64,000 bases of DNA from Nanobdellota archaeon (GCA_038044205.1 JBBTAN010000017.1:30027-94026); one strand, 5' to 3'; counted from the stretch's first letter, positions 1,212-52,970 are shown. Numbers and translations: made by a program. Notes: generated by a model not told the origin, from the letters alone.

Positions 1212-1823
1212 ATGAAAGATTATCCCTCTATCGCACGTTCAAATAAAGCTCCTATTGGAGAACATTGTATAGCTTTCTATAAATATGATGGGAGTAATTT
1301 ACGCTGGGAATGGTCCAAGAAAAAGGGATGGAATAAATTCGGAACTAGGAATCATCTATTTGATAAAAATGATCTACAGTTCGGACAAGCTATTCCTCTT
1401 TTTCTTGAAACCATTGCACCTAAATTAGATGATATAATTAAACAAGAATTTAAAAATATTGATATAGTAACTGTATTTACTGAATATTTTGGTCCATCTT
1501 CTTTTGCTGGACAACACCTTCCTGATGAAAAGAAAGAACTTCGTCTTTTTGATGTTTGTCCTCATAAAAAATGTATGATGAATCCTAAAGATTTTATTAA
1601 TATTTTTGGTTCTTTACCATTTGCAGCCCAAGTTGTTTATGAAGGAATACTCGCTGAACAATTTATTGATGATATAAGAAATAATAAATATCCTGTAAAT
1701 GAAGGTGTTGTCTGTAAAGGAGGTGATAGACATAATCTATGGATGGTAAAAATTAAAACAAATATATATAAACAGAAATTAATTGATACTTATGGAAATA
1801 GATGGAACAATTATTGGGAATAA
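1212..1823 (+). CDS. RNA/DNA ligase-family nucleotidyltransferase, short Rnl-like
   Basis: motif I FYKYDGSN (KxDG), then TEYFG, EGVVCKG and WMVKIKT in the order of ligase motifs III, IV and V. Confidence 0.7.
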   Translation: MKDYPSIARSNKAPIGEHCIAFYKYDGSNLRWEWSKKKGWNKFGTRNHLFDKNDLQFGQAIPLFLETIAPKLDDIIKQEFKNIDIVTVFTEYFGPSSFAGQHLPDEKKELRLFDVCPHKKCMMNPKDFINIFGSLPFAAQVVYEGILAEQFIDDIRNNKYPVNEGVVCKGGDRHNLWMVKIKTNIYKQKLIDTYGNRWNNYWE

Positions 1824-1837
1824 ATTATATTTTATAT

Positions 1838-1880
1838 TCAATTGATCCTTTCGTCTCAAAACCTTTATTATTCTATGGTA
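1838..1880 (+). promoter_or_regulatory. degenerate motif-2 element
   Basis: TCAATTGATCCTT followed by ttattc and tatggtAGATGAGAAA; tandem with the full copy at 1919. Confidence 0.4.
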
Positions 1881-1918
1881 GATGAGAAAGAACAAAGAAA
1901 AATAAAATAATTTATATT

Positions 1919-1961
1919 CCAACTGATCCGACATGCTTCTTGTTCCTTCTCATTCTATTAT
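1919..1961 (+). promoter_or_regulatory. motif-2 element (CCAACTGATCCGA-N24-TATTAT)
   Basis: 13-mer shared with 7 other sites; a -10-like hexamer lies 12 nt before ATG 1974. Confidence 0.55.
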
Positions 1962-1973
1962 AGAACAAAGGAA

Positions 1974-2300
1974 ATGACTATGAAACTAGGAGAAATTTTT
2001 ATAATAGTAGCTATTGCAATGATACTTGGTTCTTTATTTTTCTCTTATATAAAAGAATTTAGAGATTCTGTTAAACCTCAATTAGGAAAACAAGTAATTG
2101 AATTGCCAAAAGAAAAACAGATAATATATGAAGAACAAGTAGATAATACAAATATTGGTTTCTTGATAAATATGGCAATAATCTGGTTGGTATTGGATAT
2201 GAAAAGAATTGGATTTATAAAAATATTATTGGAAAAACTTCTTTCGTTGCTTCTCATTTTACTTTGGAACAAAGAAAGAAAACATCATGAAACCAATTGA
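1974..2300 (+). CDS. membrane protein, family T
   Basis: N-terminal TM helix plus IKEFRDSVKPQ, shared with the 2287 gene. Confidence 0.55.
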   Translation: MTMKLGEIFIIVAIAMILGSLFFSYIKEFRDSVKPQLGKQVIELPKEKQIIYEEQVDNTNIGFLINMAIIWLVLDMKRIGFIKILLEKLLSLLLILLWNKERKHHETN

Positions 2301-2601
2301 ACTTGCAATTACTGTTTTTATTATTTCTATTGTTGGCTATATTTTTATTTCAGGTATAAAAGAATTCAGAGACTCTTTAAAACCTCAACCTGTTATAGAA
2401 AAACAAATCCAATCAAAGGAAAATATTCAAGTAAATTATAAAAAAGAAATAGCTAAATTAAATATTATTATTTTAGATATGGAACAAAAAATCAGAGACC
2501 TAGAAAAACTACACGTTGAACAAGAATCTTTTATTTCAGATACAAGGAATATAGAAAAAAGACTGCGACAACTAGAAAAAATTCATTGCGAAAAAGAATA
2601 G
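2287..2601 (+). CDS. membrane-anchored coiled-coil protein, family T
   Basis: TM helix plus IKEFRDSLKPQ; paralog of 1974. Confidence 0.6.
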   Translation: MKPIELAITVFIISIVGYIFISGIKEFRDSLKPQPVIEKQIQSKENIQVNYKKEIAKLNIIILDMEQKIRDLEKLHVEQESFISDTRNIEKRLRQLEKIHCEKE

Positions 2602-2605
2602 AATG

Positions 2606-2614
2606 TTGTATAAT
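2606..2614 (+). promoter_or_regulatory. TTGTATAAT -10-like element upstream of tRNA-Leu
   Basis: gTTGTATAATTAGTTt ends 12 nt before the tRNA 5' end; near-identical strings at 13456 and 47040. Confidence 0.5.
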
Positions 2615-2626
2615 TAGTTTAGAAAT

Positions 2627-2717
2627 GCGGTAGTAGCCGAGCGGCACAGGCAAGGCGCTTAAAACGCCTCGGAAGTAGCAATACTTCTTGTGAGTTCGAA
2701 TCTCACCTACCGCACCA
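2627..2717 (+). tRNA. trnL: tRNA-Leu (anticodon UAA), type II with long variable arm, CCA encoded
   Basis: acceptor gcggtag/ctaccgc; anticodon stem aggcg/cgcct with loop cTTAAaa; variable arm gaagta-gcaa-tacttc; T arm gtgag-ttcgaat-ctcac. Confidence 0.9.
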
Positions 2718-2746
2718 TTTCTTGTTTTTATTAAAGGAAATATAAA

Positions 2747-3532
2747 ATGATAACAAAAGATGAGTTAGTTCAATTATGGAATTCAGATATTACTGTAGTG
2801 AAAGTTAGAGAAAAGTTAGGGAGAATTTCAGAGAGACAATTGTATAAATACCTAAAATTGTACGACATCCCCAAAAGAAAAAGGGGAGGAGTTAGGAAAC
2901 AAACGACATATCCACAAACCATAGAATCTGCTTATGTTATGGGACTTGCTATTGGCGATGGAAATATTTCTAAATTAAAAAGAACTTTAAGACTTAGATT
3001 GTATTGCGATGAAAGATATAAAAAACTTATAGATAAATGGAAGTTATCTTGTGAAAATGTATTTCAAAGAAGAGTGTCTATATCAAATCATCATTGTGGC
3101 AAATGTAAAATCATATCTATACATACTAATGCTCTTTCTACTTTTCCTTGGGAACCAAATAAAGGACATAAATGGAAGCAAAAAGTAAAGATTCCAGATT
3201 GGATAATTGAAAACGAGGAATTTTTACATGCTTGTATGAGAGGTTTGTTTGAAACAGATGGTTGTTAGTATACACAGATAATAAAAACAAAAAATCATGA
3301 ATATTGTTATGAAAGAGCTAATTTTTGCAATTCGTCAAAAGAATTAATAAAACAGGTGATAAATTATCTTAAAAAATATGATATTCATTTTTGCGTATTC
3401 AAAAGAAAATATAGAAAAGGTATCATTAGAATTACTAGACAGAAATTTAAATCTACCTCAACAAATTATGCTATTGCTGTAAATGGATATGAAAAATTAA
3501 AAGAATTGACAGGATTTGTAAAGAAGGAATAA
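2747..3532 (+). pseudogene. LAGLIDADG homing endonuclease interrupted by an in-frame TAG at 3266-3268
   Basis: motifs MGLAIGDGN and RGLFETDGC; after the TAG the same frame stays open for 87 more codons (..FCNSSKELIKQVINYLKKYDIHF..), ending at TAA 3530. Confidence 0.75.
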
Positions 3533-3539
3533 AAAAAAT

Positions 3540-3670
3540 AACAGGTTGCAATGTAGATGACCGATATATTAGGTGGGAAATGGGCCGGAGCGTCATGTCC
3601 TCCGTTATTATCTCCTTAACCGAAAGCTGCCGCCCATGCTGAAGGCTTTCCTTTTACATTGCAACCTGTT
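3540..3670 (+). ncRNA. hairpin-closed GC-rich structured element U1
   Basis: perfect 16-bp closing stem aacaggttgcaatgta 3540-3555 / tacattgcaacctgtt 3655-3670 around a GC-rich core of about 100 nt. Confidence 0.45.
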
Positions 3671-3684
3671 TTTAATTAAAAAAT

Positions 3685-3799
3685 AGAAAATAAATAATGT
3701 CCTTTGTGTGGAGCCAAGCCAGCCGGTGATAAACACACCGTTAGTTTTCTCGGCGTAGTCTGTTGCTGGTAACTGTAGGACTACTATTATTTATTTTCT
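3685..3799 (+). ncRNA. hairpin-closed structured element U2
   Basis: closing arms agaaaataaataatgtcct / aggactactattatttattttct; GC-rich core with gtgtg/cacac and ccagc/gctgg pairings. Confidence 0.4.
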
Positions 3800-3814
3800 T
3801 TTTATTTTTTATTT

Positions 3815-3909: not shown

Positions 3910-3919
3910 TTTTTATTTT

Positions 3920-4009: not shown

Positions 4010-4024
4010 TTTTTAAATAAAAAA

Positions 4025-4241: not shown

Positions 4242-4619
4242 ATGAAAAATATAGAAAATAAATCCGTTATTGAGGAGATGAACTTTTATCCACGTAAAAT
4301 GAAATGTTTTAAATGTGGAATTACAATTGTTTTTTATGGAAATAAGAAGCCAAGTATTAGTTATGATGATTGGGATTTGAGGGATAATAAAGAAATATGT
4401 TATAGGTGTGCAACTACTAATTGTAGGTCAATAGATCCAATGAATATGAGTTTACTTCATTATGCTGCTTTAGAAAATAGATTAGAATCATGTAAATTTT
4501 TAATAAATAAAATAGATATAAATATATTAAATGATAGAAATGAAACACCATTAGATTTGGCGAAGGATAAAAAATTAATTTATTTTTTAGAAAGTAAGGG
4601 AGCAAAAAGGAGTAAGTAA
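4242..4619 (+). CDS. zinc-ribbon plus ankyrin-repeat protein, family F N-terminus
   Basis: FKCGITIVFYG..CYRCA Cys pairs; C-terminal LLHYAALENRLESCKFLINK..NETPLDLA ankyrin signature. Confidence 0.75.
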   Translation: MKNIENKSVIEEMNFYPRKMKCFKCGITIVFYGNKKPSISYDDWDLRDNKEICYRCATTNCRSIDPMNMSLLHYAALENRLESCKFLINKIDINILNDRNETPLDLAKDKKLIYFLESKGAKRSK

Positions 4620-6509: not shown

Positions 6510-6586
6510 GAGGGCGTAGCTCAGTTGGCTAGAACAAAAAGCTTTTAACTTTTAGGCCGTGAGTTCGAGCCTCACCGCTCTCACCA
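6510..6586 (+). tRNA. trnK: tRNA-Lys (anticodon UUU), CCA encoded
   Basis: acceptor gagggcg/cgctctc; anticodon stem aaaag/ctttt with loop cTTTTaa; T arm gtgag-ttcgagc-ctcac; one C-A mismatch in the D stem. Confidence 0.85.
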
Positions 6587-6621: not shown

Positions 6622-7200
6622 TTGACTCACATTCCTATTGTAATTGAAAAGACTAAAGGCGGAGAACGCGGCTATGATATTTATAGCCGTTTACTCAAAG
6701 ATAGTATTATTTTTATTGGTGATTCAATTGATGATAATTTAGCTAATTCTGTTATTGCGCAAATGTTATTTCTCAGCCTAGAGAAAAAAGAAAAAGAAAT
6801 ATCTATTTATATTAATAGTCCAGGTGGTAATGTTACTTCAGGCATGGCTATATATGATACTATGCGTTATATTTCTAATCCTATTGCGACTTTCTGTCTT
6901 GGACAATGCGCCAGCATGGCTGCTGTTCTTTTAGCGGCTGGAGATAAAGGAAGACGGTTCTCTCTTCCTAATTCAAGAATTATGATTCATCAACCTTGGG
7001 GCGGGGCGTCGGGAAGCGCGTCTGATATTAGAATCCAAGCTAATGAAATTGAACGTCTAAAAAAATCAATTAATAAAATATTAGTAGATCATTCTGGTAA
7101 ACCTATTGAGACTGTAGAAAAAGATACAGATAGGGATTTTTTTATGAGTCCAAAAGAAGCTATTGAATATGGTTTAATTGATACTGTTCTTGGAGAATAA
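6622..7200 (+). CDS. clpP: ATP-dependent Clp protease proteolytic subunit ClpP
   Basis: TTG start after SD aaaggagag; [35 protein letters not shown] (Ser), MIHQPWGG (His), EAIEYGLID; the track ORF start lies inside the tRNA. Confidence 0.9.
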
Positions 7201-11119: not shown

Positions 11120-11788
11120 ATGAAAAAAATGTCTAAATGGGAACAATCAATTATTAATAAATTCATAAAACAAGCTGAAGCTGAAGATGATAAAAAATTT
11201 CCTAAACAAAATATGGCGAATGTAAATGATATGAAAAAAGAAGGATTACCTTTGCTTCATTACGAAGTAAAATATCAACAAATAGAGGAAATTAAAAAAT
11301 TGATTGATTTGGGGGCTGACATCAACATTAGCGTACCCCCTGTAAATATGACACCTTTACTTTGGGCAATCTCGTATGGATTTTATGAAATTGCTGAATT
11401 ACTTATCAACAAGGGAGCGGATGTTAATAAAAGTGGTGGAATTGTAAAAACAACTCCACTTCAGTGGGCACTCTCAACTAAACGTACATCCTCACCTAAT
11501 ATACTTCCTGAAAAACGAAGAGAACTTGTTAATATACTTATTACTAATGGTGCTGATGTTAATGCCGTGCATTCTTCAAATGGGTATACCCCACTTCATA
11601 TCGCAGCTTCTCATGGTCACAAGGATGCTGTTGCTATGTTGCTCCTTGCTGGTGCAAATGTTAATATCAAAACATATAATGGAGAAACTCCACTGGACCT
11701 TGCGGTAAAGTTAAACCAGAAAAACAAAAGAAAAGGTAAGGAAGTTATAGAATTAATTAAAAAAGCAATTGATGGTAACAACAAATAA
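11120..11788 (+). CDS. ankyrin-repeat protein
   Basis: TPLLWAISYGFYEIAELLINKGADVN and TPLHIAASHGHKDAVAMLLLAGANVN repeats. Confidence 0.9.
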   Translation: MKKMSKWEQSIINKFIKQAEAEDDKKFPKQNMANVNDMKKEGLPLLHYEVKYQQIEEIKKLIDLGADINISVPPVNMTPLLWAISYGFYEIAELLINKGADVNKSGGIVKTTPLQWALSTKRTSSPNILPEKRRELVNILITNGADVNAVHSSNGYTPLHIAASHGHKDAVAMLLLAGANVNIKTYNGETPLDLAVKLNQKNKRKGKEVIELIKKAIDGNNK

Positions 11789-13477: not shown

Positions 13478-13556
13478 GGGCCTGTAGCTCAATTGGTTTT
13501 AGAGCATCGGACTCATAATCCGGGGGTTCCAGGATCATGCCCTGGCAGGCCCACCA
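13478..13556 (+). tRNA. trnM: tRNA-Met-type (anticodon CAU; Ile2 not excluded) with atypical T-loop, CCA encoded
   Basis: perfect acceptor gggcctg/caggccc; D stem gctc/gagc; anticodon loop cTCATaa; T stem ccagg/cctgg but T loop atcatgc lacks TTC. Confidence 0.8.
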
Positions 13557-13662
13557 TTTTCAATCTTTCCCAAAAAAGAAAAAATAAATAAAGGAATCCG
13601 TTTCAATAACATACAATTTATATTAGTCCACAATATTGTGGTTTGATATATGGAGGTCCAAT

Positions 13663-14325
13663 ATGAAAGAACAGGAAAAGATTAAAGCTATTGAGTTGAG
13701 AAAACAAGGGTTATCAGTCAATAAAATAGCAAAAGAAGTTGGTGCTTCAAAAGGAACTGTCAGTGTATGGGTTAGAGATATTCAATTAACAAAAGAACAA
13801 AAGATTCAATTAGCTAAAAATAGAAATCCAGGTTATTCAGGATTTAGCACAAAAGAAATATTAGCAGAAGAAAAAGAAAAAAGAATAGAATCACAAAACA
13901 AAGGGAGAGAAATAGTAAAAAGTTGTGAAGAAGGATATAGGTATGGATGTATGTTATACTGGACAAAAGGTGAAAAAAATAAAAATTGTGTTGTATTCTC
14001 GAATACAGATGTAAATATAATGATTCTATTTATTAATTTTTTGAGAAAATATTTTAACTGCAATAATAAAGATTTTTCTATTTCTGTAACCGCTAATGTC
14101 AATAGTGAATATTCTTCTTCAGATATAGAAAATTTTTGGATCCAGAACCTTGGTATTGAAAAAGAATGTTTAAAAAAATCAACATTCAAGAAAAACGATA
14201 AAGAAAATAATGAATATCCTTATGGGAAATGTCGTATAGCTCTAAATAATACAGATGTAATTCAGCAGATTTATGGCTCTATTCAAGAAATTGGTGGATT
14301 CGTCCAGGAAGAATGGCTATATTGA
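13663..14325 (+). CDS. HTH plus LAGLIDADG-like homing-endonuclease-like protein, family H
   Basis: IELRKQGLSVNKIAKEVGASKGTVSVWV (HTH); CMLYWTKGEKNKN..FINFLRKYF..FW resembles a single-motif LAGLIDADG-type domain from memory. Confidence 0.5.
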   Translation: MKEQEKIKAIELRKQGLSVNKIAKEVGASKGTVSVWVRDIQLTKEQKIQLAKNRNPGYSGFSTKEILAEEKEKRIESQNKGREIVKSCEEGYRYGCMLYWTKGEKNKNCVVFSNTDVNIMILFINFLRKYFNCNNKDFSISVTANVNSEYSSSDIENFWIQNLGIEKECLKKSTFKKNDKENNEYPYGKCRIALNNTDVIQQIYGSIQEIGGFVQEEWLY

Positions 14326-14432
14326 TTTTTTATTTTTTAGAAAAAGAAAAATAAATAAAGGAATTTTTATACCCTATGCCGAATCTAAATATATCCAACA
14401 TCATTTCGATGTTTGGTATAAGGAGATTCGGT

Positions 14433-15143
14433 ATGAAAAAAGAAGAAAAAGCCAAAGCTATTGAATTACGCAAGCAAGGGTTTTCATTGCGTACAATATC
14501 AAAACAACTAGGCGCATGTAGAAGTAGTGTAAGTTATTGGGTTAGAAATGTTTTATTAACAGATGCTCAAAAAACACAATTGATAGCTAATAAAAATAAT
14601 AGTGGATATTTAGGATTTGGAGCAAGAGTTGTAGCTGCTAAAGCTAAAGAAAAAAGGATGGAGTATCAAAATATAGGAATAGAAAAAGCTAGTAATTGCG
14701 ATATAGAATATTCAATGGGATGTATGTTGTATTGGGCCGAAGGTAGTAAAAATAAAAATGCTGTAATATTTACAAACACAGATGTTGATATGATGGTATT
14801 TTTTGTGAATTTTATGAGAAAATATTTCAATTGTAATAATGAAGACTTTGCAGTATCTATAAATACTTATTTAGATAATGGCTACACTGAAATTGAAGTG
14901 GAAAATTTTTGGATGGAAAAATTTAAACTTGACAGAACTTGTTTAAGAAAATCAATTTTTAGAAAAGGTGATGGGACAGGTAAATATCCTTATGGAACAT
15001 GTAGAATAAGTATAGGTAGCACAAAAATAGTTCAACAGATATATGGTTCTATACAAAAATTAATTGGTTTTAAAAGGGAATTGTGGTTAAATGGTAGCAG
15101 GGGTTGGAAAGGCCAAAATAAAAATTTAGAATCAATCAAATAA
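14433..15143 (+). CDS. HTH plus LAGLIDADG-like homing-endonuclease-like protein, family H
   Basis: paralog of 13663: IELRKQGFSLRTISKQLGACRSSVSYWV, CMLYWAEGSKNKN, FVNFMRKYF. Confidence 0.5.
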   Translation: MKKEEKAKAIELRKQGFSLRTISKQLGACRSSVSYWVRNVLLTDAQKTQLIANKNNSGYLGFGARVVAAKAKEKRMEYQNIGIEKASNCDIEYSMGCMLYWAEGSKNKNAVIFTNTDVDMMVFFVNFMRKYFNCNNEDFAVSINTYLDNGYTEIEVENFWMEKFKLDRTCLRKSIFRKGDGTGKYPYGTCRISIGSTKIVQQIYGSIQKLIGFKRELWLNGSRGWKGQNKNLESIK

Positions 15144-15151: not shown

Positions 15152-15227
15152 GGGCTAGTGGGGATGGTCTCCTCGCAACGTCTTATAAGCGTTGTTTTCT
15201 CAGTTCAATTCTGAGCTAGGCTTACCA
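15152..15227 (+). tRNA. trnI: non-canonical tRNA-like gene, anticodon UAU (Ile, AUA)
   Basis: T arm ctcag-ttcaatt-ctgag; anticodon stem aacgt/gcgtt with loop cTTATaa; acceptor gggctag/ctaggct has a G-G mismatch; crowded D arm; 3' tail t-acca. Confidence 0.55.
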
Positions 15228-15913: not shown

Positions 15914-16087
15914 ATGTTATCATTTATATTATTTAGTTTATATTGTATGATATTATTTGGATTGACAATTTGTTTAGTTGAGAGAATATGTTATTTTTTG
16001 AATATAGGAGATACTATAGCAAAGTGGACTAAAAGGTGGTGGTTATGAGTATGGCAGATATTACATTTGGAATATTTACAGGGATAG
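15914..16087 (+). CDS. small membrane protein
   Basis: 57 codons, SD aaaaggaaaaataaaa, N-terminal TM segment; the 3' end overlaps the next ORF. Confidence 0.4.
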
Positions 16088-16170
16088 GTATATTATTTAT
16101 ACTTGGTCTTATTTTTATGGAATATGAGACATTTGAAGAAACAATGGATAGGTTGGAAAATAAAAAATGA
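16044..16170 (+). pseudogene. small TM protein with a 1-nt frameshift at a G4 run
   Basis: MSMADITFGIFT (frame of ATG 16044, SD aaggtgg) continues as GIGILFILGLIFMEYETFEETMDRLENKK only if gggg at 16080-16083 is read as ggg. Confidence 0.4.
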
Positions 16171-16340
16171 TAGATAATATAAAAGAAGCATTGTCCATAT
16201 TGAGATCAGGTAAGGATAATTATAGTCAAGCATTAGAGTTAAAGGAATTGGCATTGAGGATGAGGCGTGAGATAATTAATGAAATAGGTATAGTTGAATA
16301 TATAAAATTAGAAGAGAGGAATCGTCTAAAAGGAAAATGA
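16167..16340 (+). CDS. hypothetical small protein
   Basis: 57 aa, checked codon by codon. Confidence 0.5.
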   Translation: MIDNIKEALSILRSGKDNYSQALELKELALRMRREIINEIGIVEYIKLEERNRLKGK

Positions 16341-16344
16341 AAAA

Positions 16345-16635
16345 ATGTCATTTATTAAAATTATTTCTTTGGAATATAAGGATAAACAGGAGATCAAGGT
16401 TCATCCACTTTTTAGAGTTATTTCTGTTAATAAAAATGAAAATAATTATTTATATATTTCTGGTATTCATGATGGATATAAAGAAAGTTCAGATGGTTTA
16501 AAAATTGAAACAAGAATAGTATATATTACAAAAGAAGGCGATGTAGACAATGGAGTTATATGTTTTAGAAATCATATAGGTAGTGTAGTACATTTAGGTG
16601 AGATTTACCATATATTTATTAGCAATAAGGGGTAA
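16345..16635 (+). CDS. hypothetical protein
   Basis: 96 aa with SD. Confidence 0.6.
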   Translation: MSFIKIISLEYKDKQEIKVHPLFRVISVNKNENNYLYISGIHDGYKESSDGLKIETRIVYITKEGDVDNGVICFRNHIGSVVHLGEIYHIFISNKG

Positions 16636-16652
16636 AAAAGGAAAATAAAAAA

Positions 16653-16853
16653 ATGAATGAATGGAATAGTTGTATGTCTCATCCTAATAATGATAAAATT
16701 GTTTTGATTCGTCTTGATACTGGAGAATATGTAGTTGGCAGATGTCATAAAGGGGAGTGGCAAAGACCAGATTCGCATGGTAATTATTATATTTTATTTG
16801 GTGCAAGTAAATGGATTGATATACCTGATGAAAGTAATTTTAAAAATAAATAA
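16653..16853 (+). CDS. hypothetical protein
   Basis: 66 aa with SD. Confidence 0.6.
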   Translation: MNEWNSCMSHPNNDKIVLIRLDTGEYVVGRCHKGEWQRPDSHGNYYILFGASKWIDIPDESNFKNK

Positions 16854-16868
16854 AAAGGAAAAATAAAA

Positions 16869-16946
16869 ATGATTACTATGTTATTAGGATTTATTATAGG
16901 TATATGTTTATGTTATTGGATTTTTGGAGATGAAGATGAAAAGTAA
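16869..16946 (+). CDS. very small membrane peptide
   Basis: 25 aa, MITMLLGFIIGICLCYWIFG, SD aaaaggaaaaataaaa. Confidence 0.4.
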   Translation: MITMLLGFIIGICLCYWIFGDEDEK

Positions 16947-16950
16947 TAAA

Positions 16951-16991
16951 AATAAACATATATAATTTATTATTTTATTTTTTAAAAGGAG
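16951..16991 (+). repeat. 41-nt exact repeat, copy 1 (aataaacatatataatttattattttattttttaaaaggag)
   Basis: identical at 17886-17926; contains TATAAT and supplies the SD of the next gene. Confidence 0.8.
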
Positions 16992-16997
16992 AAGTAA

Positions 16998-17360
16998 ATG
17001 AAGGCAGAGAATAGGGTTATACTTGATTGGATAGCTAATGGTCGTGAGGTAATAAAATCAGGTGGATGTAATTATATATTTCATAATAATTCTGATACAG
17101 ATGGTTGGGATATTTTGGAATTTATATTGAAGAACAGAGGGAGGAAGGCAGCTATATATGAACTTGAGAATGCTTATTGTTTTATGAATCATAGGGATTT
17201 AGGAGAGGATAGTTGGGAATTTCATGATTCATATTTTATAAAAAAGAATCAGCCGAATCGTATGAATTTCAGAAAGAAGGATAGTTTCTGGTTAGTTAGG
17301 TTTGAGGAAGTTAAAGTTGAAGATGGAGTAAATAATTCTTTATCTGAATTATTTACATAG
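16998..17360 (+). CDS. hypothetical protein, family I
   Basis: 120 aa; ..NGREVIK..WLVRFEE parallels 17371. Confidence 0.65.
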   Translation: MKAENRVILDWIANGREVIKSGGCNYIFHNNSDTDGWDILEFILKNRGRKAAIYELENAYCFMNHRDLGEDSWEFHDSYFIKKNQPNRMNFRKKDSFWLVRFEEVKVEDGVNNSLSELFT

Positions 17361-17370
17361 GGGAGAAGTA

Positions 17371-17703
17371 ATGAAAAGAAGTAATCAAATATTAATGAAG
17401 AAGATTTCTAATGGAAGGCAAGCTATTAGATTTAATAATTTAGGTGAAGAAGAATATATTTGTCAATTTAATAAAGGATTATGTAATTATGATATTATTT
17501 TGGGGGCTATTTTAAAAAATAATAGGAAAAGGGTTGATGTTATAGAGCTTGAGTGTGCTCATACATTAGTTAGTAGGAAAGAGTTAGAAGAGATGGATGA
17601 TATGGACCAGCGTATATTTTTTAATACATGGTTTATAAAAGAAAAACAGTCGAAGAAAATAGATTTGTCTAAAAGACATGATTGGTTAGTTAGGTTTAAA
17701 TAA
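17371..17703 (+). CDS. hypothetical protein, family I
   Basis: 110 aa; ..NGRQAIR..WLVRFK. Confidence 0.65.
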   Translation: MKRSNQILMKKISNGRQAIRFNNLGEEEYICQFNKGLCNYDIILGAILKNNRKRVDVIELECAHTLVSRKELEEMDDMDQRIFFNTWFIKEKQSKKIDLSKRHDWLVRFK

Positions 17704-17726
17704 TTTAATTTAATTATGGAGGGACA

Positions 17727-17900
17727 ATGAGAGAAGAAGATCGGAATCGACTAATAGAGATAAAAAAGAAGATAAAATTGGGTATTATTTCCAGTCCAAT
17801 TGAGAAGAAATTTTTAGAGCAAATGTGGAACAATTACAGAGTAGAATATTGCGAGATAGAGCAATTGGTAGGGGATTATGGAATAAATAAACATATATAA
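17727..17900 (+). CDS. hypothetical small protein
   Basis: 57 aa, SD ggaggg; the 3' end runs into repeat copy 2. Confidence 0.5.
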   Translation: MREEDRNRLIEIKKKIKLGIISSPIEKKFLEQMWNNYRVEYCEIEQLVGDYGINKHI

Positions 17901-17926
17901 TTTATTATTTTATTTTTTAAAAGGAG
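17886..17926 (+). repeat. 41-nt exact repeat, copy 2
   Basis: identical to 16951-16991. Confidence 0.8.
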
Positions 17927-17933
17927 GAAGTAG

Positions 17934-18119
17934 ATGAAAAAAGAAGAAATTACGCCAGAATCTGCAAAGTTGGAAATGGATGAGATAGTTAAACTTAATG
18001 ATGTTGATCCTGAAGCAGGACATAGTAAAGCAGATGATCTTTTATGTCGTATTGCTAAAAAACATGGTTATGGAGATATTGTTAAATCTTTTAATAAAAT
18101 GGATAGATGGTATGCCTAA
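17934..18119 (+). CDS. hypothetical small protein
   Basis: 61 aa with SD. Confidence 0.6.
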   Translation: MKKEEITPESAKLEMDEIVKLNDVDPEAGHSKADDLLCRIAKKHGYGDIVKSFNKMDRWYA

Positions 18120-18138
18120 TAAAAAATTATATATAATT

Positions 18139-18414
18139 ATGGAATTATTAATCCATGAAATAAAAGAAAAAGGATTGCCTGTAGGTTATATAGTAAAAGA
18201 TATATTTGATATGGATAATTTATTGATTATAGAAGAAGATGAAAAAATTAATTTAGTTACTGATGAAGGTATTGAACCTCAATATGAGGGCAGTAAAAAG
18301 CAAAAGAAATTAGATGATTTAGATTTAGTAGCATTGGCTAAATTTTATTCTTATTCTTTGCGTGGTAAAGAGTTAGAAGAAATTAAAAATAGAATAATTA
18401 ATAATTTATTTTAA
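18139..18414 (+). CDS. hypothetical protein, start uncertain (18112 or 18139)
   Basis: in-frame ATGs at 18112 and 18139; no clear SD. Confidence 0.45.
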   Translation: MELLIHEIKEKGLPVGYIVKDIFDMDNLLIIEEDEKINLVTDEGIEPQYEGSKKQKKLDDLDLVALAKFYSYSLRGKELEEIKNRIINNLF

Positions 18415-18428
18415 TTGGAGACAATTGA

Positions 18429-18815
18429 ATGAAAAAGGGATTTACTTTAGCAGAGTTTTTAGTTGTAGCTGCTATTATAGGTATTTTGAGTGCTTTTTTA
18501 TATCCTGCTTTATATAAGTCAAGAGAAGAATATAGAAAACAAAATAATCCAGATAGTAATTTATGGTTAAGTGTTATCAGTAGAGGAGAAAAAGATATAG
18601 TAGCTTGGGTATCTATATATCCAATCCAAACTGACGTTTCAACTTCTATGGTTGGTTATAATGACAAGCATGAAGTAATATATACAGGCACAGGTCTTTC
18701 TTTTTGTTATTCTATAAAAATAGATGAGGTAGGTAAATATAAAGAAAAGTATAAGGATATATGGATATACACAAGTGATACGGTAGTTGAGAATGTTCCA
18801 GCGGAGAAACAATAA
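18429..18815 (+). CDS. type IV pilin/pseudopilin-like protein
   Basis: N-terminus MKKGFTLAEFLVVAAIIGILSAFLYPAL matches the prepilin cleavage/N-methylation motif G-FTL-E plus a hydrophobic helix. Confidence 0.75.
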   Translation: MKKGFTLAEFLVVAAIIGILSAFLYPALYKSREEYRKQNNPDSNLWLSVISRGEKDIVAWVSIYPIQTDVSTSMVGYNDKHEVIYTGTGLSFCYSIKIDEVGKYKEKYKDIWIYTSDTVVENVPAEKQ

Positions 18816-19087
18816 TGAAAATCAGGTTAAAAATTGATTTAGATTTATGTGATGGGTTTTATGATATAGGTGATAATGAGATGTCGGATATAGAATATGG
18901 CGAGATATTAGATTGTTTAAAAGAAATCTATGTTACAGGTCTTTTAGAATATTATCGTACAGATTTAGAGAATGTTAAAAAAATAGAGGATGCTGGAATA
19001 AGAAACAGATGTTGTGAGTGGAATAGAAAGGTAACAAAGATGATACAGAATTCCAAATTACGTTTTAAAGAAAGGATTGATAAATAA
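18815..19087 (+). CDS. hypothetical protein, family U
   Basis: MKIRLKIDLDLCD.. parallels MKVRLTIDFDLGD.. of 28649. Confidence 0.6.
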   Translation: MKIRLKIDLDLCDGFYDIGDNEMSDIEYGEILDCLKEIYVTGLLEYYRTDLENVKKIEDAGIRNRCCEWNRKVTKMIQNSKLRFKERIDK

Positions 19088-19290
19088 TGGTTAAAATTTT
19101 AGGTAAATGTGAGGACGATTATTCTAAACCAATATGGTATGTTGTTTGGGAGGGAGAAAAAGATAAAGTATTAGATGCTTTAGTTGAGCTAAAAAATAAA
19201 TCTTATTATCCAGATAGGCTTGAACTTGTAGTAGTTGAAGAAATTAATGGTAATCTTGGAGGTGCTGTTGGTCATCCTTGGAATGAGTAA
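19087..19290 (+). CDS. hypothetical protein
   Basis: 67 aa, ATGA-type overlap. Confidence 0.55.
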   Translation: MVKILGKCEDDYSKPIWYVVWEGEKDKVLDALVELKNKSYYPDRLELVVVEEINGNLGGAVGHPWNE

Positions 19291-19311
19291 TAATTTTTAA
19301 AGGAGTAAAAA

Positions 19312-19524
19312 ATGCCAGAGAATGAAGTAGTTGATGATGTTGATAATAGTGTTAAGGATAGTAAATATAAGAAAACATATGTATATAAAACAAGTAAAAA
19401 GGAAAAGTTTTGGAATTTTATGATGAATTATAATAAGGATGGCAGGAAGGGAAAGGATGATAGAAAAGTAGAGAGATTCCATAGACGTAGGCTACATATT
19501 AAAAAATTAAATAATAGGAGTTAA
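19312..19524 (+). CDS. basic hypothetical protein
   Basis: 70 aa, SD aaaggag. Confidence 0.55.
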   Translation: MPENEVVDDVDNSVKDSKYKKTYVYKTSKKEKFWNFMMNYNKDGRKGKDDRKVERFHRRRLHIKKLNNRS

Positions 19525-19527
19525 TTG

Positions 19528-19743
19528 ATGAATTCATCTGATAAATGGCTTGCAGGCACTGTGATAATTATTGTTTTTTTGATTTGCACTTCGCTTGTTA
19601 CTGGTTATATTTATAATTGTAAACATGAGGCAGAAATGGCTGAAAAAGGATATATATATGTTCCATCTTCTACAAATAATTCTCGTTGGGAAAAATTAAA
19701 AGATATAAATAAACAGATAGTTGAAAAGGATATAAATAAATGA
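19528..19743 (+). CDS. membrane-anchored hypothetical protein
   Basis: ATG 19528 lies 8 nt after ggag; TM segment WLAGTVIIIVFLICTSLVTGYIY. Confidence 0.6.
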   Translation: MNSSDKWLAGTVIIIVFLICTSLVTGYIYNCKHEAEMAEKGYIYVPSSTNNSRWEKLKDINKQIVEKDINK

Positions 19744-19988
19744 AAGTAATAAGTTCTAAATTAGTAGAATGTGGTGCTGTTGCGGCTATAAGAGAAGTAG
19801 TAATAGAAGCAAGTGTAGAAGAAAAGAGATTATTAGCTAAATCATTAAAAGTAGTAAATAGTTATCAGAAATTAGCTAAAAAAGAATTAAAAATGGATAA
19901 AGGAAATAAACCAGATTGGAAGATGTTTGAATTTTTTAATGATAATGGAAATATAAAGGTAGTAGTAAAGGATGGTGCTTGCGGTTAA
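19740..19988 (+). CDS. hypothetical protein
   Basis: 82 aa, ATGA overlap. Confidence 0.55.
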   Translation: MKVISSKLVECGAVAAIREVVIEASVEEKRLLAKSLKVVNSYQKLAKKELKMDKGNKPDWKMFEFFNDNGNIKVVVKDGACG

Positions 19989-20400
19989 TAAAAGGAAATT
20001 GATTTTAGATGAAAAAGTAGTTGAAAATAAAAATTTAACTACTTTGCAGAAAACAGATATAAGAAATGAATTCATTAGATCTCGTATTGAGCGTTTAGGA
20101 AATTTATCTAAAGATTTGGTTATAGAAGTTAAATGTAGTGTTACAGATGTTATCCCTATTATTGAGAGTAAGGACGGTAAGCTAATTAGCAATAAGATAG
20201 TAGGGGCAAACATAATTGCTACTGCTCCTGCTATATGGGATATAACTATAACATGCGATATTGATTTATTGAATAAAGTAAGAAAGATAAATAAAAATGA
20301 TAAAATAATTATATTATGTAACACTCCTCATGTTATAAATAGCAATAGGCCAATAAGGAAGATTGCTAGTGCGGTTGCAACTGATATAATCATGAAATAG
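19972..20400 (+). CDS. hypothetical protein, start uncertain
   Basis: 142-aa ORF overlapping the previous gene; TTG at about 20000 is an alternative start. Confidence 0.5.
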   Translation: MVLAVNKRKLILDEKVVENKNLTTLQKTDIRNEFIRSRIERLGNLSKDLVIEVKCSVTDVIPIIESKDGKLISNKIVGANIIATAPAIWDITITCDIDLLNKVRKINKNDKIIILCNTPHVINSNRPIRKIASAVATDIIMK

Positions 20401-27042: not shown

Positions 27043-28014
27043 ATGGCGCACGAACTTAGTATTACAAGGGAAGGTATTGTTGAGTTTGCTTGGTCTGGGA
27101 AGACGCCTTGGCATAATCTGGGCGTTAAGGTTGATGGATTGATGGATCCTATTCAGGCGCTTGAACAGGCTCATTTGAACTGGGATGTCAATCTTGTTCC
27201 TCTTACTATGCCTAATGGAAATGTTGTTCCTGATAAGCGGGCAAGTGTTAGGAGTGATACTGGGGCTTATTTGGGTACTGTCGGAACCCAATATACTCCA
27301 CTTCAGAATAAGGAACAGGCTGAGTTTATTAGAGATTTGATCGGAGGGACTGGAACTAAAGTTGAGTGTTGTGGTGCTTTGTTTGGTGGAAGTAAGACTT
27401 TCTGGACTGTTAGGGTTGGTGAAGATATTTATATCAAGCCGGAAGATTCTATTCAGCGTTATCTTATTGTTGCTAATGGCCATGATGGAAGTCTTTCGTT
27501 TAAAGCTTTCTGGTCTCCTATTCGTGTTGTTTGTAACAATACTCTTTCTATGTCTTTGAATAGGAAAGATAATGGTTTTTCTATTCGTCATAAGACTGGG
27601 GTTAAAGACCATGTTGAAGAGGCTAGGGAGATTTTGGGATTGACCGAACTTTATTACAAGAATTTGACTGAAAGTTTTCAGGCTATGGTAAATAAACAAC
27701 TTGATGCGGCTGGATATAAGGAGTATTTGGAATCTATCTTTCCTATTACTGATGGCAAGAAGATTAGTAAGCAACAGGCTGATATGATTCAGGTAATGAA
27801 TGTTAATTTTGAGTCTGGTCGTGGTGCTAATATTGCTGGAAAGACTGTTTGGGGTGCCATGAATAGTGTAACTGAATATATAGATCATCAAAAGAGATTA
27901 AATAAAACTGATGATGTTGTTGATGCTACTTCCCGTCATTTCGAGTCTGTTCTTTATGGACAGGGACAAACTATTAAGCAGAAGGCTTACGATAAGGCGC
28001 TGGCTCTAGTCTAA
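27043..28014 (+). CDS. DUF932 (phage/plasmid-like protein) family
   Basis: MAHELSITREGIVEFAWSGKTPWHNLG..ALEQAHLNWDV..ANGHDGSLSFKAFWSPIRVVCNNTL matches my memory of DUF932/TIGR03299; AAG, CTT and TTG codon bias. Confidence 0.8.
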   Translation: MAHELSITREGIVEFAWSGKTPWHNLGVKVDGLMDPIQALEQAHLNWDVNLVPLTMPNGNVVPDKRASVRSDTGAYLGTVGTQYTPLQNKEQAEFIRDLIGGTGTKVECCGALFGGSKTFWTVRVGEDIYIKPEDSIQRYLIVANGHDGSLSFKAFWSPIRVVCNNTLSMSLNRKDNGFSIRHKTGVKDHVEEAREILGLTELYYKNLTESFQAMVNKQLDAAGYKEYLESIFPITDGKKISKQQADMIQVMNVNFESGRGANIAGKTVWGAMNSVTEYIDHQKRLNKTDDVVDATSRHFESVLYGQGQTIKQKAYDKALALV

Positions 28015-50145: not shown

Positions 50146-50380
50146 AAAGACAAAAGAATATTCAGTTAGTATTGATTTCTGCGGTCTATTATGTTTACTT
50201 TTTATTGCTCTAAAACTAACTAATTATATTGATTGGTCTTGGATTTGGGTATTGGCCCCTATCTGGATACCAATTACTATTGTATTATCAATTACCGCCA
50301 TGTTCTTTGGAGTAATGGGAATTGTTATATTTTTTGTTTATTTAACTGAAGTTATTGCTAATAATAAAAGGAATAAGTAA
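50138..50380 (+). CDS. two-TM membrane protein, family Q
   Basis: LFIALKLTNYIDWSWIWVLAPIWIPI. Confidence 0.65.
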   Translation: MSKKTKEYSVSIDFCGLLCLLFIALKLTNYIDWSWIWVLAPIWIPITIVLSITAMFFGVMGIVIFFVYLTEVIANNKRNK

Positions 50381-50559
50381 TGAAAGATAGAAAGTGCCCA
50401 AGACAAGGATTTTTAACAACTCCTGAATTATGCGCTCAAAGAAGAGCAAGAGATTTTGATAGATGTAAAATTTGTAAACATAGAAAAGAATATGATGAGG
50501 AAGATGCTAAAATAAGTGCTGAAGTTAAGCCGCAAGAAGAAAACAAAGAAAAGGAGTAA
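50380..50559 (+). CDS. hypothetical small basic protein
   Basis: 59 aa, checked codon by codon. Confidence 0.5.
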   Translation: MKDRKCPRQGFLTTPELCAQRRARDFDRCKICKHRKEYDEEDAKISAEVKPQEENKEKE

Positions 50560-50564
50560 GTAAA

Positions 50565-50813
50565 ATGATTGTTTCTATTGTTCATCTTGATATTAAAAAT
50601 GGTTTTCCTGTAGTTGAAACAATTTATACATATGAAAATAAAAATTTAGAAGATTTAAAAGATAAATTTTTTGCAACAATTAAAAAGGATGACCCAAATA
50701 TAAGCCCTGAAAATTTAGAAAAATGCCTGAACTCTTTATATTACCAATATAAAAATAATAATAAATCTATTTCTTTACATTGGCATTTTGTTGAACAGGA
50801 AGTGCGAACGTAA
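50565..50813 (+). CDS. small protein, family C
   Basis: MIVSIVHLDIKNG..DDPNISPENLEKCL. Confidence 0.6.
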   Translation: MIVSIVHLDIKNGFPVVETIYTYENKNLEDLKDKFFATIKKDDPNISPENLEKCLNSLYYQYKNNNKSISLHWHFVEQEVRT

Positions 50814-50834
50814 CAAAGAAAAGGAGTAAGCAAC

Positions 50835-51071
50835 ATGAAAGTTATTTCTGTTTTTACTATTGGACATTGTGAAGGAAAACCTGTTATTGATAATTTTTAT
50901 TCTTTTGAAAACGATGATATTTACGACGCAGAAAGAATGTTTTTTGATTTATTGAAAAAAGACAATGAAAATATCAGACATGAAGATATTGCTGCACATA
51001 TTAGAAATGGACTTTATGATTGTAAAAATGGTGATACTATTTTTATCAATACATCTTCTATTGAGAAGTAA
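50835..51071 (+). CDS. small protein, family C
   Basis: MKVISVFTIGHCEG..DNENIRHEDIAAHI. Confidence 0.6.
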   Translation: MKVISVFTIGHCEGKPVIDNFYSFENDDIYDAERMFFDLLKKDNENIRHEDIAAHIRNGLYDCKNGDTIFINTSSIEK

Positions 51072-51093
51072 ACAAAGAAAAGGAGTAACTAAC

Positions 51094-51546
51094 ATGGAAG
51101 TCAAGGAACAAGTTAGAAAGTTTGAATGGAATGAATTTGATATTATTCAGAATCAAGCCAAATTCTTGATGGAAGAAGAAAATATTGATGAAAAGAAAGC
51201 ATTTGATATTACTTGCGAAGACCCTGATCTTATTTCTTTTGAATGGGATTCTTTTCTTGATATGGTTACAGAAGAACTAAAAGAAATGAATCCAGGTGGT
51301 GATTGGGCTTGTAATGTTAAGGGGTTTGGTTGGCGTAAACTTGATGGGCATACTTATTTTAATGCCAAGGATGCTAAAGAATTTTTTAGTAAGATTCTTC
51401 CTGATTGCGAATGTAGATTTATTATGAATATTTTTCCTTGTGAAAAAACTATTTCTATTAACAATTTTCACCATGACTCGCCTTATGGTGAAGAATGGTA
51501 TTATTTGGAACCTGTCTTTTTTAGCGAGGAAAGTAAAAATGAATAA
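51094..51546 (+). CDS. hypothetical protein
   Basis: ATG 51094 after SD aaaggagtaactaac. Confidence 0.65.
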   Translation: MEVKEQVRKFEWNEFDIIQNQAKFLMEEENIDEKKAFDITCEDPDLISFEWDSFLDMVTEELKEMNPGGDWACNVKGFGWRKLDGHTYFNAKDAKEFFSKILPDCECRFIMNIFPCEKTISINNFHHDSPYGEEWYYLEPVFFSEESKNE

Positions 51547-51745
51547 AACAGACAATGCGCTCCATCTTGCTAATACAGGGCATTATACAATGGAAATGTT
51601 CTGGGAAAGAATGACAACTAAAGAATGGAAACTTATTCTTTTAGATGGTAATGATAAAATTTGCTGTCATGGAGTTCCTCGACAGTTAGTTGCAAAGAAG
51701 TTAGGTTGTGGCATTGTTGAAGTAAGGAAAGCACCTTTGGAATAA
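51539..51745 (+). CDS. hypothetical small protein
   Basis: ATG 51539 overlaps the previous gene's end. Confidence 0.5.
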   Translation: MNKTDNALHLANTGHYTMEMFWERMTTKEWKLILLDGNDKICCHGVPRQLVAKKLGCGIVEVRKAPLE

Positions 51746-51761
51746 AGAAAGGGAAATAAAT

Positions 51762-52970
51762 ATGTCTTCTTCTCTTATTGTTCCTGTCTGTCGCATTAAA
51801 AATAATAGAGAGCATCCTAATGCTTCCCTATTGGGTATTTGTGATGTCCTCGGATATCAAATGGTCGTCCCGCTCAAAGAGGCTCCTGATGGTCCTATTG
51901 CACGTTATTTTAAAAAGAATATGGTAGATGATAAGGGTAAGAAGATTCCAACTAATCAAGATGATCCTGAAGCTGAAGTTATTAATTTGGATTTTATGTA
52001 CCCAGAAGATAAATTAGTTGTATATTTCCCTTTCGACACTATTCTTTCTTCTGAATGGGCTTGTAAATTTGGTGTTCAATCTCTTCTCAAAGGTGCTAAT
52101 AATGATAGAGTAGGAAAGATTAAACTTAGAGGCGAACCAAGTTTTGGACTTGTTGTTGATATTCCTGAAGGTGTTGACTGGCAAGAAGGAACTAATGTTG
52201 CTGATTACTATGGCGCTATTAAATATGAACCGCCAGTTAGACAAATTTGTGGTGATGCTCATTATGCGGACCCTGATATTGATCCTTTCTTTGAAAAATT
52301 TACTGATGTTCAGAATGGTAGAATTTATACTGATATTTTTGAAGACGGTGAAGAAATCATTGCTACAGAAAAGTTGCATGGGTGCAACGGAAAAGTAGCG
52401 CTTATAAATAATAATTATGTTGCTGGTTCAATGAATCATAGAAGGAAGCGTCCAGTTAGGATGGAAGGTGAAAATGTTATTGAATGTTCTTTTGATGATA
52501 AGGAAATGAAAGAAAATATATATTGGTTTCCTTGGACTGTTTCTACTGTTAGGACAATGATGGAAAGTATAAAAAATATGGGGAATATTGTTCTTTATGG
52601 TGAGATTTATGGAGGGAGTATACAGAGTCTTACTTATGGAATTCCAAAAGGTAAAGGATTAGGATTCAGGGCTTTCGGACTAACAGTAAATGGTAAGTAT
52701 ATGGACTGGGACGATTTTGAATCAACTTGTAAAAAATATGGAGTTGATATTGTTCCTGTTATTTATAGGGGGCCATTTAGCATGGCTATTGCTAAACAAC
52801 ATGCTAATGGAAAAACTACTCTTACTAAAGATGGACAAATTAGAGAAGGAGTAGTTTGCTATCCAGTAAAAGAAAGAACAAATTCAAGGATTGGTAGATG
52901 TATACTGAAATATATTTCGGATGAATATTTACTTTCCAAACATCAAGATAATGACACAAAGGATATTTAA
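51762..52970 (+). CDS. ATP-dependent RNA ligase with N-terminal OB-like domain (Rnl5/DraRnl-like architecture)
   Basis: N-terminal VCRIKNNREHPNASLLGICDVLGYQMVV; motif I TEKLHGCNG (KxHG); later YGEIYGGSIQ, REGVVCYPV and ILKYIS in ligase motif order. Confidence 0.75.
   Translation: MSSSLIVPVCRIKNNREHPNASLLGICDVLGYQMVVPLKEAPDGPIARYFKKNMVDDKGKKIPTNQDDPEAEVINLDFMYPEDKLVVYFPFDTILSSEWACKFGVQSLLKGANNDRVGKIKLRGEPSFGLVVDIPEGVDWQEGTNVADYYGAIKYEPPVRQICGDAHYADPDIDPFFEKFTDVQNGRIYTDIFEDGEEIIATEKLHGCNGKVALINNNYVAGSMNHRRKRPVRMEGENVIECSFDDKEMKENIYWFPWTVSTVRTMMESIKNMGNIVLYGEIYGGSIQSLTYGIPKGKGLGFRAFGLTVNGKYMDWDDFESTCKKYGVDIVPVIYRGPFSMAIAKQHANGKTTLTKDGQIREGVVCYPVKERTNSRIGRCILKYISDEYLLSKHQDNDTKDI

Follow-up and report, generated by a model that had tools for sequence, protein, structure and literature searches.

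Introduction

Why would a phage keep two enzymes of the RNA ligase superfamily in a region that also encodes tRNAs, and do these enzymes act on tRNA? The question is raised by a 64-kb stretch of DNA deposited under the name of a Nanobdellota archaeon, which we analysed over its whole length and refer to as the window. It encodes a ligase-type nucleotidyltransferase (NTase) of 203 amino acids (aa), a second enzyme of 402 aa, tRNA-Lys(UUU) and tRNA-Leu(UAA). The initial annotation of the window had read this set as a possible answer to host anticodon nucleases such as PrrC. The general concept that phage tRNAs and RNA ligases oppose tRNA-cleaving defence is already published, as a prediction: the tRNAs of jumbo phages, together with healing enzymes and the ligases RtcB, Rnl1 and Rnl2, have been predicted to reverse tRNA cleavage (PMC7824862), tRNA-Lys(UUU) co-occurs with rnl1/rnl2 in coliphages (PMC10264068), and a 2026 review remarks on tRNAs and RNA ligases against tRNA-cutting defence (PMC13282480). 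Here, our analysis shows that the 203-aa protein belongs to a large family of stand-alone ligase-type cores whose usual home in giant phages lies inside the tRNA arrays, a striking association that is apparently unreported. In the jumbo-phage RNA-repair literature cited here, neither this 200-aa stand-alone clade nor its position in tRNA arrays is singled out.

The window belongs to a contig of 499,814 bp from the 0.1-µm fraction of Hainich groundwater (ENA ERZ1292626, Hain_H43_01um_R3_3_length_499814). Both ligase proteins are on record at 100% identity on this contig (MEK6832572.1 and MEK6832699.1), under the NCBI title 'MAG: RNA ligase family protein [Nanoarchaeota archaeon]'. In phage databases, the nearest relatives of the 203-aa protein come from uncultured phages of 485-642 kb, from Lak megaphages and from Xanthomonas phage XacN1. 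Because these are all huge phages, the contig is a megaphage mis-binned in a Nanoarchaeota metagenome-assembled genome (MAG) and not an archaeon; its gene content likewise marks it as a megaphage.

A stand-alone ligase-type core

The 203-aa open reading frame (ORF) reported by the initial annotation is present, with its KYDG motif. The protein belongs to the covalent lysine nucleotidyltransferase superfamily, as it combines the NTase fold with motifs I (K24-Y-D-G-S-N), III (FTE91-YFG), IIIa (LRLFDV), IV (E164-G-V-V-C-K169) and V (K180-I-K182-T). Across 46 homologs, K24, D26, G27, E91, F113-D114, E164-G165, K169, K180 and K182 are invariant or nearly so. Some 20 residues follow motif V, and no domain is appended. 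The family counts 979 close homologs, and 738 representatives at 50% identity, nearly all of them 195-225 aa long. It also occurs in chromosomes of Planctomycetota, at 35-45% identity and in ORFs of about 240-260 aa; the carriers include a Ca. Uabimicrobium chromosome (L197), Planctopirus hydrillae JC280 (L198) and loci L199-L210.

Searches with the 203-aa protein gave no match in Pfam or NCBIfam and none among PDB sequences, whether by single sequence or by profile; a partial match was found to the RNA ligase family phrog_548 (1.9e-7). Its AlphaFold2 model (pLDDT 95.2) is closest to the NTase domains of TbREL1, T4 Rnl2, T4 Rnl1, NgrRnl (Rnl5) and Rnl3 (E 4e-8 to 1e-6, TM 0.6-0.7), the best matches being TbREL1 (3.7e-8) and residues 1-249 of T4 Rnl2 (1.6e-7; TM 0.63-0.68). 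DNA ligases reached E ~1e-4 against this model, and for both proteins of the window they scored at least three orders of magnitude worse than RNA ligases. A viral structure library contained one true member of the family (204 aa, TM 0.85), the other matches being longer ligases of the Rnl1 or Rnl2 type. In a profile-profile comparison with the family of the 402-aa protein (hhalign), the similarity covered motifs I to IV, in the NTase part only (E 4e-4).

RNA ligases are sorted into clades by the domain joined to their shared core, and that domain is regarded as necessary to recognise the substrate and to perform some of the chemistry. The 203-aa protein has neither the C-terminal all-helical domain of Rnl2 nor a match to the corresponding model TIGR02307. 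With T4 Rnl1 it shares the core only (TMt 0.37-0.39), without the C-terminal domain, and since its motif I begins at residue 24 it has no N-terminal OB domain of the Rnl5 kind. Neither protein of the window has a C-terminal OB domain after motif V. Because its members are about 200 aa long and bear no appended domain, the family is outside all the named clades Rnl1-6. It shares its motif set and nearest fold with T4 Rnl2 and kinetoplastid REL1, but lacks the C-terminal helical domain that Rnl2 needs for nick adenylylation (PMC1807946). A jumbo-phage survey counts such paralogs, three of them in XacN1, as Rnl2-family (PMC7824862). By sequence and fold, the 203-aa protein is an uncharacterised, domain-less variant of the RNA ligase kind.

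Association with tRNA arrays of giant phages

The neighbourhood of the family was surveyed in 80 viral loci (the gene and 10 kb on either side; 62 loci after dereplication at 95% identity). tRNA genes are present in 47 of the 80 loci, 547 in all, often with one directly on either side of the ligase-type gene. Nearly all of them are oriented as this gene is (542 to 5). A tRNA lies within 500 bp of the gene in 22 of 71 loci and within 1 kb in 19 of the 62 dereplicated loci. A copy in a Lak-A2 phage, for instance, has 17 co-oriented tRNAs just upstream, and an array of 11 tRNAs is found 3 kb upstream of the copy in LR745206.

The association was compared with 80 loci of ClpP, a control taken in part from other phages. 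At least one tRNA is found in 37/62 loci of the 203-aa family and in 26/80 ClpP loci (Fisher p 0.002); the gap widens for loci with at least five tRNAs (28/62 against 6/80; Fisher p = 2e-7). The density is 3.7 tRNAs per 10 kb around the family, as compared with 0.82 around ClpP (1.5 when only contigs of 100 kb or more are counted). An alternative control, the 323-aa ORF at 27043-28011, had no relatives that we could find.

No tRNA species is favoured around the family, and tRNA-Lys(UUU) accounts for 13 of the 547 genes. Several related arrays (L008, L009, L012, L028, L078/L079) contain suppressor-type tRNAs, with a CUA anticodon called 'Pyl' and in one case a UUA anticodon called 'Stop'. These anticodons suggest that stop codons may be recoded in those relatives; in the window, nothing points to recoding.

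Recurrent neighbours and repair partners

Protein clustering of the neighbourhoods revealed a recurrent set of genes. It comprises GIY-YIG and HNH homing endonucleases, an RF-1-domain (ArfB-like) protein, R2K ATP-grasp, NADAR and NAD+-salvage enzymes, a 2H 'Swiss-army-knife' phosphoesterase and RtcB; a Metallophos_2 protein and a second ligase, which matches PF09414 and is about 234 aa long, frequently adjoin the 203-aa family gene itself. At least one RNA-repair or translation partner, among the ArfB-like protein, the second ligase, Metallophos_2, the 2H phosphoesterase and RtcB, is present in 30 of the 62 loci. The ~234-aa ligase (PF09414 6e-24, motif EKIDGAN) lies 0.6-2 kb from the family gene in L061-L064, L071 and L073, which suggests paired minimal ligases with separate roles. 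Genes assigned by eye as NAMPT-like, PRPP synthetase and NadM-Nudix occur near arrays or ligases in 4-6 loci each (L012, L016, L033, L040 and L041 among them). NADAR (Pfam 1.8e-19) recurs in the same surroundings in 4-6 loci, and in XacN1 an annotated NAD+ synthetase is found two genes downstream of ORF354.

Repair partners were also sought in the window itself. The Pfam scan took in all 157 + strand ORFs, with the best 25 of 35 families considered for the first half of the window, and among the matches listed it detected no kinase, phosphatase or phosphoesterase. The initial annotation had likewise seen no polynucleotide kinase/phosphatase in the window, and tblastn agrees. No Pnkp-type kinase was found in the window, in the 8.8 kb upstream or in the 10 kb downstream. 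These 18.8 kb of flanks do contain a single metallophosphoesterase gene (PF00149), some 7 kb beyond the end of the window, so that a search beyond the window for healing enzymes returned a phosphoesterase and no kinase. The metallophosphoesterase is generic (phrog_1649), with faint similarity to Dbr1. As a conserved partner of the ligases it was rejected, a single relative having been found, near one locus of the 402-aa family.

The two ligases of the window do not form a linked module. In the window 50 kb separate their genes, and in related genomes the distance is 19-274 kb; genes of the two families come within 10 kb of one another in only 3 of 80 loci.

An Rnl5-clade ligase in the same window

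The 402-aa protein is an ATP-dependent RNA ligase of the Rnl5 clade (DraRnl/NgrRnl type), a new member of a known family. Both its KLHG motif and its N-terminal OB domain, already proposed in the initial annotation, are borne out: the OB domain is followed by an NTase domain with K204-L-H-G, E281, F305, E362-G and K383 and by no C-terminal domain, as in Rnl5 enzymes. In an alignment of 37 homologs, K204, G207, E281, F305, E362 and G363 show no variation and K383 almost none, and the residues essential in the NTase of DraRnl (K165, E230, F281, E305 and the motif V lysine) have counterparts. The protein matches Pfam RNA_ligase (PF09414, 1.2e-25) and, weakly, the PHA02142 OB fold; its homologs carry PF09414 together with the PF21189 OB domain. 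In NCBIfam, TIGR02306 (RNA_lig_DRB0094) matches at 5.5e-38, as against 2.5e-7 for the Rnl2 model. The TIGR02306 score of 130.7 bits falls below the equivalog cut-off of 151.15, which is a matter of scoring and not of structure, and marks a divergent subclade.

Structure comparisons agree with this assignment. The family profile matches NgrRnl in the PDB over both OB and NTase domains (6e-16, chain residues 37-321), and T4 Rnl2 over the NTase only (1e-8). With the AlphaFold2 model (pLDDT 90.7), Foldseek retrieved full-length NgrRnl at E 3e-18 (TMt 0.72-0.75, ~410 columns); T4 Rnl2 followed at 1.5e-9 over the NTase only, and all matches other than NgrRnl were at least nine orders weaker. T4 Rnl1 was matched over its NTase core only (E 6e-4), and the protein is without the extra C-terminal domain of that enzyme. 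A capping enzyme gave only E > 5e-3 (TM 0.23-0.26). Profiles and folds both place the two proteins of the window in the RNA ligase superfamily, as initially proposed, and not among DNA ligases or capping enzymes. Within it, one protein belongs to the Rnl5 clade and the other to none of Rnl1-6, and neither of them is Rnl1-like. We hold this classification, and the intactness of both active sites, with high confidence.

The 402-aa protein thus has the two-domain plan, all the NTase motifs and the overall fold of DraRnl (DR_B0094) and NgrRnl. It differs from NgrRnl in being only ~20% identical to it, in falling below the TIGR02306 cut-off and in a β-hairpin insertion of ~40 aa in the OB domain (approximately residues 38-80), which the alignment shows to be common to a subclade. 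The Rnl5 family is already known in phages, for example from Aeromonas phage 44RR2.8t and CcrColossus. Rnl5 enzymes seal 3'-OH/5'-PO4 nicks in duplexes with RNA as the 3'-OH strand; their physiological role has been described as uncharted, the sole known phenotype being radiation sensitivity in Deinococcus (PMC5397189, PMC1807946). The tendency towards tRNAs is weaker in the Rnl5-like family than in the 203-aa family, with tRNAs in 9 of 22 loci (2.1 per 10 kb), and no conserved neighbours of these genes were detected except scattered tRNAs.

Genomic setting and tRNA genes

The window contains about 157 small, tightly packed + strand ORFs. Its GC content is 29-31% and its GC skew is strongly positive, with a maximum of 0.52 in the 4-kb stretch at 16001-20000 and 0.14-0.39 elsewhere. 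No nucleotide similarity of the window to known phages was found. ORF coverage fits the standard genetic code, and gave no support to stop-codon reassignment of the kind known from Lak phages. A scan of the window for promoters and terminators that would delimit operons returned counts at the level of shuffled sequence. The commonest codon of the window is AAA (75 per 1000); TTA and TTG together make up 52% of Leu codons, and ATA 28% of Ile codons.

Table 1. Positions of the ligase genes, tRNA genes and other features in the 64-kb window.
Feature	Position	Strand	Evidence and remarks
203-aa ligase-type nucleotidyltransferase, MEK6832572.1	1212-1823	+	ORF; K24-Y-D-G27
tRNA-Leu(UAA)	2627-2717	+	ARAGORN; Rfam 54.9 bits; CCA encoded
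Ankyrin-repeat protein 1	4242-4619	+	Same accessory region
tRNA-Lys(UUU)	6510-6586	+	ARAGORN; Rfam 59.6 bits; CCA encoded
ClpP protease	6622-7200	+	PF00574 1.1e-80; starts 36 bp after tRNA-Lys
Ankyrin-repeat protein 2	11120-11788	+	Ank_2 6.4e-35
tRNA-Met(CAU)	13478-13556	+	ARAGORN; Rfam 61.6 bits
Two ORFs with weak HNH-like similarity	13636-14325, 14376-15143	+	Between tRNA(CAU) and putative tRNA-Ile
tRNA-Ile(UAU), doubtful	15152-15223	+	ARAGORN only
402-aa RNA ligase, MEK6832699.1	51762-52970	+	ORF; K204-L-H-G207
ArdA anti-restriction DNA mimic	60752-61279	+	Pfam PF07275 7.5e-35

Three to four tRNAs are thinly spread over 13 kb, with the 203-aa ligase gene at one end of the series (Table 1). 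ARAGORN and Rfam agree on tRNA-Leu(UAA) and tRNA-Lys(UUU), both of which the initial annotation had listed. The former lies 0.8 kb downstream of the ligase gene and is co-oriented with it. The latter has a canonical anticodon loop (CUUUUAA) on an A-U-rich anticodon stem (AAAAG/CUUUU), and is immediately followed by ClpP. The tRNA with anticodon CAU is, to judge from its sequence, an elongator Met or Ile2-type tRNA and not an initiator, since it has a G1-C72 pair. The putative tRNA-Ile(UAU) lacks CCA and carries a G.G mismatch in its acceptor stem, and Rfam did not recover it even at E<=0.1. The tRNAs other than tRNA-Lys also decode A/U-rich codons. No hidden RNAs or further tRNAs were detected in the first 24 kb of the window. 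HNH clusters of the related loci match the window by tblastn at 14448-14546 (8e-5) and 13690-13791 (3e-4). Lying between tRNA(CAU) and the putative tRNA-Ile, the two ORFs recall the homing endonucleases found among the tRNAs of arrays in related phages, and would fit this habit of the family.

Among the window ORFs, the Pfam matches include ArdA, ClpP, DUF932, ankyrin repeats, helix-turn-helix (HTH) proteins and one RNA_ligase. Homologs of ClpP are abundant in viral contigs (more than 560 confirmed matches). Ankyrin repeats are rare in phages, and two proteins with this domain are present in the accessory region covered by the window. The 8.8 kb upstream of the window contain a TnpB-like gene, a HATPase and a deaminase. 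The first of these, a TnpB/IS605 OrfB-like gene with PF01385 and PF07282 (Cas12f1-like TNB), is located directly upstream of the window start on the - strand (L001 7629-8711), against the otherwise uniform gene orientation.

Discussion

The explanation that we consider best overall, with a probability of about one half, is that the window holds part of a phage toolkit for the upkeep of the translation apparatus, with the 203-aa enzyme working on tRNA and the 402-aa enzyme being a nick sealer of the Rnl5 type. The window would be an accessory region of a ~500-kb megaphage, composed almost wholly of small + strand genes, and its few tRNAs would serve the commonest, A/U-rich codons of the phage. 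By homology, the 402-aa enzyme would form a Lys204-AMP adduct, pass the AMP on to a 5'-phosphate and close nicks with 3'-OH/5'-PO4 ends in duplexes with RNA as the 3'-OH strand. The 203-aa enzyme would be an adenylyltransferase core alone, complete in all catalytic motifs, of a family that jumbo phages and megaphages appear to keep within tRNA arrays, co-oriented with the tRNAs, beside RNA-repair and ribosome-rescue genes. It would most likely join or adenylylate the ends of broken tRNAs; the substrate-binding domain of characterised RNA ligases could be replaced by the nicked tRNA in its folded state, or by a partner acting in trans. Another option is that it catalyses only adenylylation or step 3. 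A tRNA-related role is favoured because the family is so tightly tied to phage tRNA arrays and RNA-repair genes, and from this genomic association we would give slightly better than even odds that the family works on tRNA. That the purpose is counter-defence is a further step, which we propose more tentatively.

Several points weigh against this explanation. The surroundings are free of tRNAs in 25 of the 62 loci, in XacN1 and in LR756511, and all the genomic copies in Planctomycetota have neither nearby tRNAs nor recognisable conserved neighbours. The co-location of the family with tRNAs could be passive, because such arrays are a known target of insertions and abound in homing endonucleases, and the ClpP control has the limit given above. 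In the window, tblastn detected none of the recurrent partner families (RtcB, ArfB-like protein, healing enzymes and others). The ligase activity of the family is itself a prediction from sequence. The 203-aa protein may not seal alone, since the isolated NTase domains of T4 Rnl2 and DraRnl carry out partial reactions without complete sealing (PMC1807946). Regarding the 402-aa enzyme, its gene is 36 kb from the nearest tRNA of the window, and the DraRnl knock-out, which delays genome reassembly after irradiation, points to DNA repair (PMC5397189).

In the main rival, the tRNAs serve only the decoding of AAA, UUA/UUG and AUA, and the ligases are otherwise engaged: the Rnl5-like enzyme would serve replication or the repair of nicks in DNA/RNA hybrids, as the DraRnl phenotype would suggest, and the 203-aa gene would occupy permissive insertion sites in arrays full of mobile GIY-YIG and HNH endonucleases, with the copies of Planctomycetota, XacN1 and LR756511 away from tRNAs. 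The codon use of a genome of 29% GC agrees with such a supply role of the tRNAs. This rival has to contend with the large enrichment over the control, the tight adjacency and the near-perfect co-orientation, and with the fact that the other recurrent neighbours are RNA-repair and translation genes and not random cargo. We consider it rather unlikely, at roughly one chance in four in its favour.

A more specific form of the counter-defence idea is that the domain-less ligase reseals tRNAs nicked by metal-dependent defence nucleases, either of the PIN/VapC type or of the TOPRIM type. Among the latter, AriB of PARIS cuts tRNA-Lys in the anticodon stem. From general enzymology, the cuts of metal-dependent tRNases should leave 3'-OH/5'-PO4 ends that can be joined without kinase or phosphatase; ends that need no healing would explain why no Pnkp accompanies the ligases in the window. 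Such resealing would also explain the presence, in one accessory region, of an ArdA-type trigger of PARIS, of tRNA-Lys(UUU) and of two ligases of the nick-sealing type. Anti-restriction DNA mimics indeed trigger PARIS (PMC11464382), although a link from ArdA through PARIS to tRNA-Lys(UUU) is speculative. The window resembles T5, whose tRNA-Lys acts against PARIS and whose tRNA-Tyr acts against retron effectors, in having a phage tRNA-Lys(UUU), and in addition it encodes ArdA, of the PARIS-trigger class. Nuclease-resistant phage tRNAs (van den Berg; PARIS-type bypass) would differ from the host tRNA in the anticodon stem-loop; the tRNA-Lys of the window has the canonical loop and the A-U-rich stem described above. 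All considered, this scenario is unlikely.

Still less probable is the initial proposal, namely that tRNA-Lys(UUU) and the two ligases counter an anticodon nuclease of the PrrC/RloC type by replacing tRNA-Lys and resealing its loop in the manner of T4 Pnkp and Rnl1. The tRNA and the two RNA-ligase-superfamily enzymes are really there, coliphages with tRNA-Lys(UUU) also encode rnl1/rnl2 (PMC10264068), and the metallophosphoesterase beyond the window end could strip a 3' phosphate. However, the ends left by such nucleases, a 2',3'-cyclic phosphate and a 5'-OH, need a kinase, and none was found in the window or in the 18.8 kb of flanks. Neither enzyme has the C-terminal domain that gives Rnl1 its specificity for the anticodon loop (PMC6379707), the anticodon loop of the tRNA-Lys is unmodified in sequence, the ligase genes are unlinked, and the arrays show no bias towards Lys. 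Because AAA is the top codon of the window, the tRNA-Lys is equally explained by codon supply. As in T4, ATP-dependent RNA ligases are found in a phage genome dealing in tRNAs, and a purpose in the tRNA pool can be proposed. Unlike T4, the window has dispersed genes and shows neither a Pnkp nor an Rnl1-type tRNA-recognition domain, and T4 repairs the tRNA-Lys of its host without encoding one, whereas the window encodes its own. What survives of the initial idea is the tie of the 203-aa family to tRNAs, and with it the wider notion of RNA ligases and tRNAs set against tRNA-cutting defence; the specific connection of tRNA-Lys(UUU) with PrrC is not supported.

The least probable alternative, that the 203-aa enzyme is not a repair ligase but serves tRNA processing, capping-like 5'-adenylylation of array transcripts or a regulatory or decoy function, would suit the missing nucleic-acid-clamping domain, the partial reactions of isolated NTase cores and an orientation shared with the tRNAs as for co-transcription, but the residues for all three ligase steps are invariant (K180/K182 and E164/K169 included), the nearest folds are sealing ligases and not capping enzymes, and we know of no need for ligation in bacterial tRNA maturation.

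The closest parallel to the translation-upkeep toolkit that we favour is found in the RNA-repair islands predicted for jumbo phages (Iyer et al. 2021; Burroughs & Aravind). The loci related to ours share with these islands tRNA arrays, several RNA ligases and RtcB, and they also have the 2H phosphoesterase, metallophosphoesterase, NADAR, R2K ATP-grasp and NAD+ salvage; the window differs in having only ligases and tRNAs.

Should the association with tRNAs turn out to be passive, what is left is a megaphage with two further annotated RNA ligases. Otherwise, a large and naturally domain-less family, with at least 738 clusters at 50% identity, would test the rule that an RNA ligase needs its attached domain, and could give a minimal ligase scaffold for biotechnology. 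The family ranges from the Lak phages of the human gut to 600-kb environmental megaphages, the cultured phage XacN1 and Planctomycetota. Its placement in tRNA arrays offers a handle on the repeated claim that giant phages repair, as well as replace, the tRNAs that come under attack.

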